A model generated the notes under the pieces. It worked only from the letters and a program-made list of their open reading frames with translations, ran no database searches and was not told the origin of the DNA. The position numbers and the translations under genes are program-made. Of a DNA stretch of 64,000 nt, positions 9,358 through 42,213 are shown piece by piece (the stretch's first letter is position 1; each line of letters starts with the position of its first letter). Source of the stretch: Eremomyces bilateralis CBS 781.70 (Eukaryota); assembly GCA_010015585.1 (NCBI GenBank), contig ML975155.1; one strand, given 5' to 3'.

Positions 9358-12300
9358 CTAGTCTAGCTCAATAGCATCGTCTGCACTCATCCCGGTTCCC
9401 GACGCGGGCCAGCTATTCGATGCCGGCGGCGGGTTGGCCTTGTTCGACACGTTTCTGAGGACCCGGTTGACGAACTGTCCTTGCGAAGCCGGCTGCGACG
9501 GCTGCTGATGATCTTCCGGAACTCTCTCCTTCCCCTTCCCATTCATATCCGCCGGGCGCGGCCTCAGCTCCTCCTCCTCCTCCTCCTCCTCCTCCTCCTT
9601 TGGCACAAACTTGCTCACCCGCCCATAATACTTCGGCAAGCTCCGCGGCGGCGACCCCGCATTGATCCCACCCGCCCCACTCGACGGCGACATGCTCGGC
9701 CCCGTATACCCCCCGCTCGACCCAGCGCTCGACCGCAGCCGCGCCGCCTCCTTCTCCCGCTCCTCGCGGAAGAACGCGATGCTGTCGTCCATCGCCTGAG
9801 TGACTGTGCGGACGCGCGCGAAGAGCGCCTCGTCGTCGGCGAGGACTTGTTGGAAGGGTTTGCGGGGGGGGGAGGGGGCGTGGGTGCCGGTTGGGGTGGG
9901 AGAAGGGTCGTCGTTGGCTTGGTCCCAGTTGCGTTTTCGGGAGGGGGGTTGGGCGACGAGGGAAGGGGGGATGCCGCGGGCTTTGAGGCGGAAGTAGTCG
10001 CTTTTGGTGGTGCTGGTGCGGTAGCTGGGTGTGAAGGTGCTGGAGCCGAGGGAGGCGTTGCGGAGGGGGGAAGGGATGGGGGGGTGGGTTGATGTGGTGG
10101 AGTTGGCGTGAGAAAAGTGGGCGGAGGGTTGGGTTTGGGACCGGCGGTGGTTGGTCGGTGGTCGAGATGAAGGGTTGACGCTGTTTTTCAGGATGCCTTT
10201 GAGCTGTGATGTGCTGCTTGCTTTTCCATTGATGGAGCCGGCGAGTCGCTCCTTATCCTTCCCCTCGGAGTGGACACCATGATCGCTTCGGTCGAGTTCG
10301 GGTTGTGATCGACGGAAACTATCGGCGAAGATGCTGCTTGCCAATGGTTCGCCGGTTGACCGCCTCATCCTTGCCTCCTTGATCCGGATCCTCCTCTCGT
10401 GCCCGCGTCTTCGATGTTTCAAACTGTAGGACAGGCGGTGCCAAATCGTGCCATATTTCTTTGCCAGCTTCCTGCTCCGGAATTCATCCGCCTCTTGACA
10501 TAATTTCTCATCCTCCCATTCCATCATCGCGTTGGTAATCAGGGGTCCAGATATGAACTCGACAAACTGCCTCATGAACCCGTCTCGGCGGTTCAAGACC
10601 AACTCGTGTGCGAGATAATCATAAGTCTCAGATTTCCTCCTCTTTTTCGCTTCGACTACTTGTTGCTTTGCTGCTTCTTCAGCCTTCCGTCGATCTTCGA
10701 TCTGACGTAACACCTCCGCCTTGCGCAATTCCTCTTGTCGGCGCTGTTCCTCGAGTCGTTTTTGTTCCGCCGCTCGCTGCTGCTCTGCAATTCTCTGCTG
10801 CTCGACAATTCTCTGCTGTTCCGCGATCCGTTGCTGTCCAGCTGCCTTTTGTTGAGCAGCCAAATCATCCTGTCCGGTTTGAGCGGCGACTTGAGGTGGA
10901 GTAGGATTCTGCGATTGCTGTTGACTGCCGCCGCTGAATTGAAACGACCCTGACGATGATGGAGCCTGGGCTGATGTCGAGAAGATAGACTGGTTCGTTC
11001 CCGTCGATTTCGAGATGCCGTTTGCTGCATTTGGGCTCGCTGGTTTCGGGGCGAAAGGACTCGTAGATTGATTGGCACTCGTTTTCGGAGGGTTGAAACC
11101 CGACGGGGCGCCGAACGCCAATGGTGACGATTTATTGGTACTTGAATCTGGAGGATTTCGCTGTGGGGGGGGGAACATTTGCGAATTGGGGCTTCCGAAA
11201 AAGGACCCTGACCCTGAAGGTGACGGTTGTGGTTTGCCGAAGGCGCTCGTAAACGGTTGAGGAGAATTAAACACCCCATTCAGGCCAGAGTTTTGAGGAA
11301 TCGCTGGAGGTTGACCTCCGCCGGTGAATATTCCAGGGGATGATTTCGGTTCGAATGCCGATGCCCCTGAATTCAAGAACCCTGTGGCTGCCTCCTTCTC
11401 TTTCGCCTTCCCTTCCGGATCCTTGACAAAGAGCGAATTGCCGTCGTCTTCCATGAACTCATCCCTTTCATGCTCCCCCTCTTCCGAATCCACAAGTGAA
11501 TCGACCTCTCCCTTGTCACGCGCTACCTTGACGCTCAGCCCATAAATGACGGCGGTGAGCGTACGCCCTATTCTTTTTTTTTCAACCAATCGAACAGACT
11601 TCCTCTGATCTCGCATCCCCCCGGTTGGACTAGGGAAAACCTTCCCTGGCACCGATGCCAAGTCAATAAACCGCTTTCCATCCGCCCTCTGTCCAACAAC
11701 AAATCCATATCCTTCGCAGAATTGCACAACTTCCCCCTCTTTATCAAATCCTAAGGCACCTTCCAGGTCCTCAACAATCCAATCCTCTATTTTTCTGGGT
11801 CCTCCTGGTCGGTATGACTTCCAGATGGTACGAAGAGCGGCCTCTCGAATCATGCCGAAGAATATCTCAGCGACACACGCCATGAGGTAGGACGTTCGAG
11901 GTGACGCAACTAAGTTCCAGAAGCGACCCCAGGAGCCTTGTGACGTCAGGTGACGCGACTTGGGTTCAAGGGGACCTTGTAGGTTATGAACATTGGATGC
12001 TGCGTGGTACAGCTTCAACGCTTGTTGCACTCGACGGTCCATTAAAATATCGCTTGGCCAAGACTGTACTCGATCCTCCAAATCTGGAATGCGAGCTTGT
12101 AGCTGAAAGATGATGCAGTATGCCCGGAATTCGGCTTCGTTCGGCGACCTATATCGTTCTCGATTATCATCGTAGTACTGCATTAGTGAGAGAAGAGTCC
12201 GGTCCAGTTGCTGCCGTTCTTGGAAGGAATCGTATTGATCGTAAGGCTTCTCAGCGAGCGCAAACTGGTGCAAAGACAAGATGTGGAATCGTGCGATTTC

Positions 12301-38081: not shown

Positions 38082-39364
38082 ATGGACGTGTTTTGGGCCG
38101 CTCCCCCGGTGTCAAGGTACCTGACCCACAACCTGGATTGTTTGCAGCATCAAATCTGATAGCTGATCCCAGAACCATCACAGCCTTCTCGTTTGTGATG
38201 TCGACCTTGTCCCATACCGGGTTTCTGTTTCTCGACCCCGGCAGTTTGGTCTTCTTCCCGCCGTTGGTGTTCGGTAAATTGCCGCCGGAGCTCTGGAGGG
38301 TGGTCACATCATGCTTTCTAACCAGAGGTGGCCTCGCACTTTTATTTGAGCCGTATATGCGTGAGTTTCCCGCTCGATGTTGGTCGAAGATTTCTGACCG
38401 GATTAGTGTATCAATATGCGAGCGGCCTCGAGCGCGAATCGTCACGATTCCCGAATCCTGGGGATTTCTTCATTTTCCTCATTTTCCTTTGCACGGTGAT
38501 AATTGTAGGTCTTGCATTTGTTCCTTTACAATTTGGTCCTCGCACTCTCATATCCTTCCCCCTTATAGTTCACCAAACCTCACATTTCTGCCCGTACGGC
38601 CTCTAGTGGCTGTCACGGTTCCTGGTACCCAGGGAGATTGACCCTTCGTCAATGTTCGATCAATCATTCGCAATACTAAACAATCGAGCTTGGCGGAGGA
38701 ATGGTGGGCGCCTATCTTGCTGCCGCTGCCTCAAAGGCTTGGTTAGCCGGTAGGCGCCCTACATTCTTAGCTGTTTGAAATGTTATTTGAAATCGAGCCT
38801 TGTGGTCTTCGCGTCATTATATTATTGATTGAATTCTGGTTGCTAACTGAATTAAGGGACTGGCCTACACTATACTGGGGGCCGAGATGTTCCTTCCAGG
38901 TTGGTACATCCGCTATCATTTATAGACGACTCTGACCTCGTATAGCCCTCATTTTGGCGTTGGCCTACACCTTTGCGCAGGATAACCCGGACCGACAAGT
39001 CAACGTGATCTTCATTAACATGCCGGCCAAGTTCATGCCATATGCGATGCTCTTCCTTACCTACATCGTGGTCGGCCCTTACATGATGTATGTTGAGATC
39101 ACCGGTCTGGTTGCCGCTCATCTCTACAACTTCTTGACGAAGATTTGGCCTGCCTTCGGCGGAGGCACCAATATCATCAAGACCCCGGGTTTTGTGAGCA
39201 GGTGGTTTGGTGGAGGAAGCCCGCAGGCTAGGAGCTTCGGTATGGCCTACCCGGGACGAGTAACTGCTGCACAGAACCAGCCGGGTTCTGGGTCAGGTAG
39301 CGGATTCGGAGGCTTTGGCTCGGCATGGCAGAGAAGAGGTGGCGGGAGACGCCTTGGAGAGTGA
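38082..39364 (+). CDS. Derlin (Der1/Dfm1 family) ERAD rhomboid pseudoprotease
   Basis: Exons 38082-38116, 38173-38360, 38407-38504, 38857-38899, 38946-39364 (260 aa); PPVSRT, PELWR (WR motif), GLVAAHLYNFL, C-terminal SHP-box-like GGGRRLG. Confidence 0.92.
38585..38763 (+). ncRNA. Candidate structured intronic RNA in Derlin intron 3
   Basis: Six stems found by eye; G-U pairs favour the + strand; ends hairpin-ACA; family not identified. Confidence 0.55.
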
Positions 39365-39868: not shown

Positions 39869-42213
39869 ATGTATATATCAGCTGCACCAAATGCCGTTCC
39901 AGCTGTCTCCATAACTCCTCTCACCCTCGCCCGGTACGCCGCAGCCGCCAGCGAAGAAATCGATCCGCACCACCGCAGCGAACAATGGTCCTCCTTCATC
40001 GGCATCATCACCGCCATTGTGGGCAATATCCTGATATCATTCGCGCTGAACACGCAGCGGTATGCGCATACGCGGCTGGAACGGCAGTACAAGGAGCGGA
40101 AGAAGGCGAGATGGAAAGCGGAGAATCGACGGAATGGCGTGGGCGCGTATGGGATCGGCTCGGAGCAAGCGGACCGAAATGGAAGCGCGATAGGACATGA
40201 TTCACCTAATGGTCATGATGGAGAAGAGGAGGCAACCGAGACAGACACGCTTCTGCCTAGGAGCATTGACAGAGATTCGTCCGAGATAGAAAGGGAACAG
40301 ACCGACTCTGACGACAGCGCCTCGCAATCCTATTTACGCTCGCCATATTGGTGGACGGGCATCATCCTCATGATCATCGGCGAAGCTGGCAACTTTCTCG
40401 CGTACGGCTTTGCGCCCGCATCGATCGTCTCGCCGCTCGGCGTGGTGGCGCTCATCTCGAACTGCATGATCGCGCCATTTATGCTCAAGGAGCCGTTTCG
40501 AGGGAGGGACTTTTTTGGCGTCCTCATTTCCATTACGGGCGCGGTGACCGTCGTCCTGAGCGCGAACACCACAGACCCGAAGCTTGGACCGGACGAGTTG
40601 TTGGATCTGATGTCGCGGTTGGAGTTTAAGATCTACCTTGGGATCACGACGGCGATGATATTTGGGTTGATGTGGGTGAGCGCGAGGTATGGGCAAAAGT
40701 CTATATTCGTGGATCTGGGTCTTGTCGGGCTATTTGGTATGTTTATCGTAGGTTCAAACTCTAAAACGCTGCTAACCTGTTATCCGTAGGCGGCTATACT
40801 GCTCTTTCGACCAAGGGCGTCGCATCGCTGCTTTCCTATACCCTGTTCCGAGCGCTGACGTTCCCTATGACATATTTGCTGGTCTTCGTCTTGATTCTCA
40901 CTGCGGTCATGCAAATCCGCTATGTAAACCGGGCGCTCCAGCGGTTCGATGCAACCCAGGTCATCCCTACGCAGTTCGTCATGTTCACTCTATCGGTCAT
41001 CATCGGAAGCGCCGTGTTGTATCGCGATTTTGAGAGAACTTCAGGGGACTCGTCCGGAAAGTTCATTGGTGGTTGCGCCCTGACGTTCATGGGCGTCTGG
41101 CTGATCACGAGTGCCCGCGAACCCAGGGAGGAAGACGATGGTTTTGGATTCGAAGAAGAGGAGGAGGAACACATCAACCTGGCCCGGGACTCAAGGCGCC
41201 CGAGCATCCAGCAACGGGACGATCGCAGGGACAGTATCCGACACAATCCTCACGCCTCACTCCCAATGTCTCTCGGAACTCCAACACGATCAAGAGCGCC
41301 GCATTTACCCGTCACCGGCACTACCCCGGCCTTGGCTCCACCCGAAACCATCGAGGAGCAATCTCCCGAAACCCTTCGACCACAAACACCCCAGCACATG
41401 GCGCTTCATTCCGATCTGGACACGCCATCCGAAGTCTCTTCCATTGCCTCGACACCTACACTGCCCACTAATCACGCATTCGACTCGCATTCTCCCCTTC
41501 TCAACTCATACCAGGACGACTCCCACGAATCCTCGCAAACGCCCAAAAGGGCCGGTTTCCTCCACCCGCTCACATCCCTCTTCACCACGACCCCCTCGAA
41601 ACCCCCTTTCGAAACCCCCTCGCACTCCACCCCCTCCCTCCCCACCATCCCACCTCACCACCCCCTCCCACTACCCCGCACCCCCACCACCGGCACCACC
41701 TCCGGCCCCACCACCCCAACCCAATCCCATCCCCATCCTTCTTCCACCACCCATGGTCCCAAACCCCGCCGCTCCCTCACCAACCTCCTCCGCCACCCTC
41801 CCCCCCTCTCCACCCCCCTCTCCTCCTCCCTCAGCGCCGTCGTCGCCGACGAACTCCGCCGCGGCCCGCCGCGCCCCCTCCGCCGCCGCCACACCATCCG
41901 CTCCCCGCTCCCCGCCGCCAGCGCACCCGTGACGCCTAACTCAATCGGGTCACGGTCGCGCGGGGTTAGTGACGCCGGGTCGATCTCGGGGATGTTAGGC
42001 GGCGGCGGGGGTGGGTCGGTGTGGAGTGGGTTGGCGAGGACGAGGAGCGCGGAGGTGGGAGAGTGGGAGGAAGGGAAAAGGAGGAGAGGGTTGGGGGAGA
42101 TTTGGGGGGGTTGGAAGAGGAGGGGGAAAGAGGGGAGGGGGGAGGGGGAGGGGGAGGGGGAGCGGGAGGCTGATGTGGAGGCTGGTACGACGGAGGAAGC
42201 GGAAGGACGGTAG
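39869..42213 (+). CDS. NIPA/DUF803 magnesium transporter family protein
   Basis: GNILISFALNTQR, YLRSPYWWTG, GEAGNFLAYGFAPASIVSPLG, NRALQRFDATQVIPTQFV; intron 40737-40789. Confidence 0.92.

Follow-up and report, generated by a model that had tools for sequence, protein, structure and literature searches.

A Probable Box H/ACA snoRNA of the ACA9/snR43 Group in the Long Derlin Intron of Eremomyces bilateralis

Introduction

RNAs of the box H/ACA snoRNA class show a hairpin-hinge-hairpin-tail structure, with the H box (ANANNA) in the hinge and the ACA box located three bases from the 3' end. They associate with the proteins Cbf5, Nop10, Gar1, and Nhp2 and reside in the nucleolus. Their pseudouridylation pockets provide two-sided complementarity around a target uridine and lie ~14-16 nt upstream of an H or ACA box. 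One RNA of this class, the yeast snR43, is transcribed individually and is not intronic. The sites guided by snR43 are Psi966 in the 25S rRNA and Psi73 in the 5.8S rRNA (PMC5699541). In Neurospora crassa, the snoRNA ACA9 (EU780988; Liu et al., 2009) was cloned as a cDNA and confirmed by northern blotting; this RNA is 201 nt long, intron-encoded, and described as an orphan (PMC2780460). An RNA of Schizosaccharomyces pombe (AJ632018), assigned to the family HACA_9, was reported to match snR43 (PMC5824354). The numbering of these families parallels that of the N. crassa RNAs, with HACA_3 corresponding to snR3 and ACA3, and HACA_6 to snR8 and ACA6 (PMC5824354; PMC2780460). Since the HACA numbering follows the N. 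crassa numbering, HACA_9 should include ACA9. Long introns with a stable predicted structure have also been described in Dothideomycetes as multi-copy introner-like elements (PMC3609843; PMC4457414).

Herein, we analyzed a 64-kb stretch of Eremomyces bilateralis DNA, referred to as the window, which contains a Derlin gene with one long intron. The segment 38576-38766 is very probably a box H/ACA snoRNA derived from the spliced Derlin intron, orthologous to N. crassa ACA9 and belonging together with the yeast snR43.

Results

The Derlin Gene and Its Third Intron

The host gene encodes a protein with the DER1 domain (Table 1). Its exon 5 demonstrates 100% identity to the annotated 260-aa DER1-domain protein of E. 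bilateralis, herein referred to as P0001. The exon-intron structure was taken from the sequencing run X3; this run is not on record as RNA, but its spliced Derlin contig shows that it contains RNA. In the spliced contig, joints were found at 38114/38171, 38360/38407, 38504/38857, and 38897/38944, and all four correspond to GT..AG introns. The joint 38504/38857 defines the borders of intron 3. The remaining three introns are 56, 46, and 46 nt long, in agreement with the original prediction, which had described the 352-nt intron 3 as oversized against other introns of 46-56 nt. Alignment of P0001 with 15 fungal Derlin orthologs is gap-free across the exon 3/4 junction, and thus intron 3 contains no coding sequence. 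A branch-point-like GCTAAC is located in this intron at 38841-46.

No second copy of intron 3 was found in the 64-kb window. The only repeats found were short chance ones and the 16-nt inverted repeat of the 3' hairpin.

Folding of the Intron Center

The center of intron 3 (38585-38763) folds on the plus strand with an energy of -81.3 kcal/mol, which corresponds to a z-score of -6.23; none of 200 shuffled sequences folded as well. For the minus strand of the same segment, the z-score is -1.73, and 12 of 200 shuffles were as good. For the entire intron 3, the z-scores are -3.05 on the plus strand and -0.55 on the minus strand. In a scan of 1414 segments of 180 nt on both strands, compared by GC-corrected energy, the intron center has rank 9 overall. 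All eight better segments have a GC content of 0.71-0.76, and the intron center has rank 1 among the segments with ordinary GC content. The shuffling results bear out the earlier description of the intron center as strongly structured and sense-favored.

Conservation of the Intron in Fungal Derlin Loci

For comparison, 80 metagenomic fungal Derlin loci were collected by a contig scan with a Derlin alignment. Both flanking exons could be anchored in 60 of these loci. According to tblastn with the Derlin protein, the coding sequence is interrupted after residue 107 by 300-500 non-coding bases in 57 of the 60 loci. The remaining three loci were mis-anchored, and the snoRNA was found there too by the covariance model (see Covariation and Covariance Model). 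The interruption starts with GT in most loci.

The intron of the window was aligned by blastn to 44 of 45 distinct orthologous introns. Identity in the main segment of each locus was 62-73%, with E-values down to 3e-13. The alignable part includes only the interior of the intron, approximately intron bases 65-210, and the flanks do not align. In the MAFFT alignment, near-invariant blocks alternate with variable stretches able to pair, and the conservation ends three bases past the invariant ACA. Introns in genes for proteins with only ~50% identity are otherwise unalignable. The conserved interior corresponds to an RNA gene rather than to a recent insertion. Conservation of the orthologous Derlin intron and compensatory changes in it, which had been set as a check of the original prediction, were both found in the metagenomic loci.

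Covariation and Covariance Model

In total, 38 base pairs were predicted by RNAalifold, 26 of them with compensatory changes. A structure of the H/ACA type, consisting of 48 hand-written pairs, was tested on an alignment of 46 sequences, herein referred to as A3. For this structure, 87.8% of the cells were paired, a value reached by none of 500 shuffles, for which the figure was 78.3%. Changes on both sides were found for 37 of the 48 pairs versus 18.1 expected, and the covariation score was 0.381 versus 0.085-0.125 with the partners slid. In the model-fitted alignment of 74 sequences, 90.7% of the cells were paired, and 38 of the 48 pairs change on both sides. The fold is thus of the hairpin-hinge-hairpin-tail type, here with three hairpins, and its helices have evolutionary support.

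A covariance model named R1 was built from 46 of the orthologous introns. Exactly one match to R1, on the strand of the gene, was found in 73 of the 80 loci, including loci outside the training set. Among the seven loci having no match, three are intronless according to tblastn, and four begin inside the last exon. The only R1 match in the 64-kb window was found at 38577-38766 (97.1 bits, E-value 4.9e-26).

The 5' CCUC block is misaligned by MAFFT because of variable spacing, and the closing stem of the 5' hairpin, P1, was therefore counted directly from the sequences. In the 45 sequences counted, CCUCNN pairs with N'N'GAGG. The fifth pair is G:C in 23 sequences, C:G in 6, A:U in 5, and G:U in 1, being unpaired in 10 sequences, including the window. 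In the model-fitted alignment, the closing stem is partly out of register, with 75% of the cells paired. Three orthologs fold alone into the closing stem, a pocket of 9+9 bases, and the upper stem.

All the pairings listed in the original prediction are literally present in the window, but only some of them are conserved across orthologs. Two of the listed stems covary, namely CGTACGGCC/GGCTGTCACG, which corresponds to the upper stem in the 5' hairpin, and TTCGAT/ATCGAG, which forms the middle hairpin's top. Also conserved are the last hairpin's base and the subsequent ACA, the latter being invariant in all 46 sequences. In contrast, the proposed closing stem TTCTGCC/GGCGGAG and the stem ATTGAC/GTCAAT are supported neither by RNAalifold nor by the H/ACA structure model. 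The 7-bp hairpin TTCCTGG/CCAGGGA is present but peculiar to E. bilateralis. In orthologs, the same bases belong partly to a guide strand and partly to the closing stem, as its 3' strand.

Anatomy of the Predicted snoRNA

The features of the predicted snoRNA are listed in Table 1. Its ends were placed according to the N. crassa cDNA, which begins two bases before CCUC and ends with ACAUCU, three bases after the ACA (PMC2780460). The mature E. bilateralis RNA would have the same ends; for this organism, the RNA is represented only by contigs, which cannot show ends.

Table 1. Positions of the Derlin gene elements and of the predicted snoRNA elements in the 64-kb window.
Feature	Position	Strand	Evidence
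Derlin (DER1-domain) host gene	38083..39364	+	Spliced RNA contig of run X3; protein P0001
Derlin exons	38083-38116, 38173-38360, 38407-38504, 38857-38899, 38946-39364	+	Stop codon at 39362-64
Derlin intron 3, host intron, 352 nt	38505..38856	+	Joint 38504/38857 in the X3 contig
Predicted mature H/ACA snoRNA, ~191 nt	38576..38766	+	R1 match, N. crassa cDNA, RNA contig
P1 5' strand of the 5' hairpin, CCUC	38578..38581	+	Direct count on 45 sequences
Predicted pseudouridylation pocket, 5' strand	38582..38591	+	CTGC invariant in 46/46; target scan
Upper stem P2 and loop of the 5' hairpin	38592..38618	+	MFE fold; 7/8 pairs change on both sides
Predicted pseudouridylation pocket, 3' strand	38619..38628	+	TTCCT invariant in 46/46; target scan
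H box, AGAUUG in the window	38635..38640	+	ANANNA exact in 38/45 orthologs
Middle hairpin, 17-bp stem, 22-nt loop	38643..38699	+	MFE fold; 18/21 pairs (helices 4-6) change on both sides
3' hairpin	38706..38759	+	MFE fold, alignment; lower 11 bp fully paired in the window
ACA box	38761..38763	+	CTACAT invariant in 46/46

The original prediction had found no ANANNA hinge; the hinge with the H box follows the first hairpin and is not located immediately before the last one. Positions 1 and 3 of the H box are occupied by invariant A. Position 6 is occupied by G in 7 of 45 sequences, the window being among them. A pseudouridylation pocket, of which the original prediction had seen no clear example, is present in the 5' hairpin and matches the 25S rRNA. 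Between the end of the upper stem, where the last pair is at 38618, and the H box (38635), there are 16 bases. The loop of the middle hairpin contains the near-invariant UCAUUCGC (38664-71), found in 43 of 46 sequences; in the window, the sequence AAUCAUUCGC is located at 38662-71.

An alternative H/ACA structure, having two hairpins and a hinge before the last hairpin, was also considered. The sequences found there, AGGAAU/AAUGGU, do not correspond to ANANNA, and this stretch is variable at the critical positions. The two-hairpin structure was therefore rejected.

Relatives Among the Known RNAs

No Rfam family matched the window at the gathering score. For the segment 38400-38950 at E <= 10, no H/ACA family was found, and the only matches were chance-level ones to ceN103 and BM-sr0117. 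No tRNA was found by the tRNA scan, and inspection by eye for snR30/U17 motifs, RNase MRP, U3, and box C/D revealed nothing convincing. At E <= 1, snR43 was found in one of 27 orthologous loci. In this ortholog (L064), the match covers the whole Rfam snR43 model (RF01256), with 28.5 bits and an E-value of 0.055; the gathering score of this model is 60. The cmscan check suggested with the original prediction was thus negative for the window itself and gave a weak snR43 match in one ortholog. Because the gathering score was missed, we claim here a shared function and probable common descent, and not membership in the Rfam model.

The similarity to ACA9 was detected by a motif look-up. The motif UCAUUCGCA, taken from the invariant loop, has a single occurrence in the supplements of PMC2780460, namely in ACA9. 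By reading, all the conserved blocks of A3 were found in the ACA9 cDNA in the same order. The RNA had been regarded in the original prediction as a possibly undescribed ncRNA; it has already been cloned and northern-blotted as N. crassa ACA9 (PMC2780460) and grouped with snR43 (PMC5824354). The literature search revealed no paper on a snoRNA in a fungal Derlin intron.

Predicted rRNA Targets

The LSU rRNA sequences were taken from 54 contaminant contigs in prokaryote assemblies, found by the site for the LSU primer LR5. All six of the contigs examined with Rfam were eukaryotic LSU rRNA. In a scan of four eukaryotic LSU fragments, the best bipartite match of the 5' pocket was the uridine in CCCUCAGGA-U-AGCAGAAG for 41 of 46 sequences, the window included. 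In the fungal-type LSU fragments, the sequence at this target is CCCUCAGGA-U-A-GCAGAAG. A different LSU site outscores the 966-equivalent in 5 of the 46 sequences.

In the window, UCUGC (38587-91) complements GCAGA directly 3' of the target uridine, and UCCUGG (38620-25) complements UCAGGA directly 5' of it. The 5' pocket of the window is thus an internal loop with a two-sided match around a uridine. Pairing with the guide requires one unpaired snoRNA base beside the upper stem. The window guide scores 12.0-12.5 on this target versus 10.5 for a typical ortholog. The 5' guide match is only moderately unusual, as shuffled LSU sequences were as good in 17 of 500 cases for the window guide and in 44 of 500 cases for the guide of the ortholog L080.

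When positions were numbered from the LSU start given by Rfam for fragment L113, the target uridine was at approximately 963. The closest other uridines are found 6 nt upstream and 10 nt downstream. The 5' pocket is predicted, from the pocket match together with the link to snR43, to target the equivalent of yeast 25S Psi966, and the position of the site fits 966. No Psi73-like target was obtained as the best match in the single 5.8S sequence scanned (L092).

The 3' pocket of most relatives (UUUGAGAAA, UUUGAGAA / GGU(G/U)U) matches (G/A)ACC-U-A-UUCUCAAA, located 73 nt downstream of the first target. This uridine is the best 3'-pocket target in 32 of 46 sequences, and shuffles were as good in 2 of 500 and 9 of 500 cases. 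In yeast numbering, the second target uridine is U1039, for which no modification is known in yeast. For LSU-1039 (yeast numbering), a different RNA, the intergenic structure 1, has been proposed in N. crassa (PMC8216456).

The loop of the middle hairpin also matches this region of the rRNA. It contains the exact complement of 25S GCGAAUGA(UU), located 33 nt 3' of the first target uridine. One uridine of the GCGAAUGA stretch corresponds to yeast Psi1004. The loop complement was found once per LSU fragment, at +32 to +36 in the seven fragments scanned. No other 8-mer complement is common to most of the orthologs examined; this one is present in 5 of 6.

The Eremomyces Copy and Its RNA

The E. 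bilateralis sequence has the lowest score among the 70 full-length R1 matches, 97 bits versus 128-210 bits. Its closing stem P1 contains three pairs: only CCU pairs with AGG (38631-33), because the partner of CCUC is CAGG instead of GAGG. The change from GAGG to CAGG also allows a local hairpin of 7 bp to form, which takes in the 3' guide strand. P1 is absent from the MFE fold obtained for the window's 5' domain, where the 3' guide strand is sequestered in the 7-bp hairpin; P1 is formed in three orthologs. In the 3' hairpin, the lower 11 bp are fully paired, and thus the pocket present in most orthologs is closed and its sequence is replaced. No target for the 3' hairpin of the window was found in the LSU/5.8S scan. 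Both 5' guide strands, the invariant loop, and the ACA are intact.

A separate contig of 288 nt, covering 38555-38836, was found in run X3. Its depth is 140 versus 1145 for the mRNA contig. This contig reaches neither of the splice sites and exceeds the predicted RNA by 90 nt. No X3 contigs were found on the other three Derlin introns, and the runs X4 and X5 gave no contigs here. The contig from the intron interior fits a stable processed RNA, contigs being unable to give ends or strand.

Discussion

Interpretation of the Intronic RNA

The original prediction had taken a hairpin followed by ACA as a hint at an H/ACA RNA. This hint proved to be right. According to the proposed mechanism, exonucleolytic trimming of the spliced Derlin intron would free the snoRNA. 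The internal loop of the 5' hairpin would pair with the 25S rRNA so as to flank a single uridine (UCAGGA-U-A-GCAGA), which is equivalent to yeast Psi966. Such pairing would present the target uridine to the pseudouridine synthase Cbf5, and both the binding of protein and the actual modification of this uridine are to be expected.

The peculiarities of the Eremomyces copy may also be read as decay of a single member of the family, the RNA of which is still made but guides poorly or not at all. Its R1 score, the lowest of the 70 full-length matches, would agree with this, as would the reduction of P1 to three pairs, with the 3' guide strand tied up in an alternative 7-bp hairpin, and a 3' pocket that is closed and has no target, versus 32 of 46 relatives sharing one. 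The G in position 6 of the H box could be counted as a further sign of decay, but the same G occurs in 7 of 45 relatives. Moreover, both 5' guide strands are intact and have a score on the target above that of the typical ortholog (12.0-12.5 versus 10.5), the ACA box and the invariant loop are preserved, and the covering RNA is present at about 1/8 of the depth of the mRNA contig. We therefore consider decay of the Eremomyces copy to be unlikely, and a functional snoRNA guiding the 966-equivalent is preferred.

It is far less likely that the RNA acts in cis on Derlin expression, instead of or besides its role as a snoRNA. Such an action might, for example, bring the 5' splice site of a long intron effectively closer to its branch point, or couple ERAD capacity to ribosome synthesis. 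It would suit the constant location of the RNA, found in this one Derlin intron in all the loci that include the corresponding DNA, and the specificity of the fold for the sense strand. However, the conservation is confined to the snoRNA and ends three bases past the ACA, the flanks being unalignable, and the conserved unpaired bases are accounted for by the rRNA complementarity. Additionally, the related snR43 of yeast is individually transcribed. Nothing points to the role of a cis-regulator of ERAD that the original prediction had considered.

A long intron with a stable fold in a Dothideomycete also required consideration of an introner-like element or another mobile insertion, since such elements are known from this class as introns longer than their neighbors and with low folding energy (PMC3609843; PMC4457414). 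This candidate was rejected once the orthologous introns were seen, with the insert found in 73 of the 80 divergent loci. Together, the intron and the insert are orthologous across dozens of divergent Derlin genes whose proteins are 43-63% identical, so that a recent insertion is ruled out, and intron 3 has no second copy in the 64-kb window. The probability of a mobile origin is thus close to negligible. The snoRNA, in turn, accounts for the presence of one Derlin intron ~7 times longer than its neighbors.

Significance

With the Eremomyces RNA, a known snoRNA family gains a new member that is somewhat degenerate, and an unannotated snoRNA gene is added to the genome of E. bilateralis. Members of this family in Pezizomycotina are missed by the Rfam snR43 model and would be found with the alignment built here. 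The published orphan ACA9 gains a predicted target and a candidate fixed host intron; the family had already been linked to snR43 in a later survey (PMC5824354).

The complementarities to the 25S rRNA lead to a tentative suggestion, which we regard as somewhat doubtful, that the snoRNA holds an ~85-nt stretch of the 25S rRNA at three points: the 5' pocket, the middle loop, and the 3' pocket. If so, the middle hairpin would be an accessory rRNA-binding arm, which could raise the guide efficiency or chaperone the folding of this segment of domain II, and the third contact would have been lost in Eremomyces, a natural variant. Regarding the ways in which H/ACA guides engage pre-rRNA, only the conserved loop, whose rRNA match falls between both guide sites, is possibly new.

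Comparison With the Known Systems

Introner-like elements resemble Derlin intron 3 in being long, stably structured introns found in the same fungal class. They are near-identical, multi-copy, recent insertions, whereas Derlin intron 3 is single in the window and anciently orthologous. A similar case among snoRNAs is the intronic H/ACA snoRNA #04 of Pezizomycotina (Gao, Jones and Rivas, 2021; PMC8216456), which was also found by covariation, is located in one intron of one host, and has a target proposed for its first hairpin. The snoRNA #04 is a different RNA, hosted by a gene for a vacuolar sorting protein and directed to SSU-743/744 (PMC8216456).

The cmscan alignment of L064 demonstrates that the family described here and snR43 share the order of elements, including a hairpin, the H box, the middle hairpin, the 3' hairpin, and the ACA. 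The guide cores beside the upper stem, UCUGCC and GUUC, and the H box AGAUnA are also shared in this alignment. The predicted 25S target of the E. bilateralis RNA is the same as that of snR43. In contrast, the 3' pocket differs from that of snR43, and in most relatives its match is instead the uridine of the 25S rRNA located 73 nt downstream from the 966-equivalent.

ACA9 differs from the E. bilateralis copy by its intact closing stem, CCUCGG/CCGAGG, and by its length of 201 nt versus ~191 nt. It also stands as an orphan, listed with no target, in its survey (PMC2780460). Like the RNA described here, ACA9 is drawn with three hairpins and with its H box, AGAUUA, after hairpin 1 (PMC2780460). 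As found by eye and by the motif look-up, ACA9 contains in the same order the blocks CCUCGG, AUCUGCCCG, GGUUCCUGG, CCGAGG, AGAUUA, UCAUUCGCA, CAUGGUGGGAAUGC, and CCCUACAUCU.

Variants of the Guide Pockets among the snoRNA Orthologues

Both guide pockets of the box H/ACA snoRNA vary among the metagenome Derlin loci with the orthologous intron. In a subgroup of four loci (L013, L018, L029, and L037), the guide strands of the 5′ pocket are altered (CCUUACUGC / UUCCUAAAUG). The top LSU match of this altered pocket is not the site equivalent to yeast Ψ966 but another uridine, GUUUGGGAA-U-GCAG, and the subgroup may represent a target switch inside the snoRNA family. The usual sequence of the 3′ pocket is replaced in L028, L035, L042, L068, and L077, as in the window copy; thus, loss or alteration of the second guide seems to have occurred on several occasions.

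Quality of the Analyzed Sequences

Short eukaryotic LSU rDNA contigs (L081–L134), evidently contamination, were found in the reference collection in over 54 genome assemblies or MAGs of prokaryotes. The whole window contains 20 N bases.

GC-Rich Stretches in the Window

Two stretches of the window pass from C-rich to G-rich sequence. The C-rich and G-rich runs of the downstream stretch are able to pair, resulting in the lowest folding energies of the whole window on both strands. The upstream stretch, with a very low folding energy, probably represents low-complexity sequence and not an RNA gene.

GC-rich stretches and their folding energies
Feature	Position	GC	Folding energy (kcal/mol)	Strand
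Upstream stretch	9700–9920	0.72	−104	+
Downstream stretch	41800–42100	up to 0.76	−103 and −101 per 180 nt	both
C-rich run	~41800–41925			
G-rich run	~41990–42100
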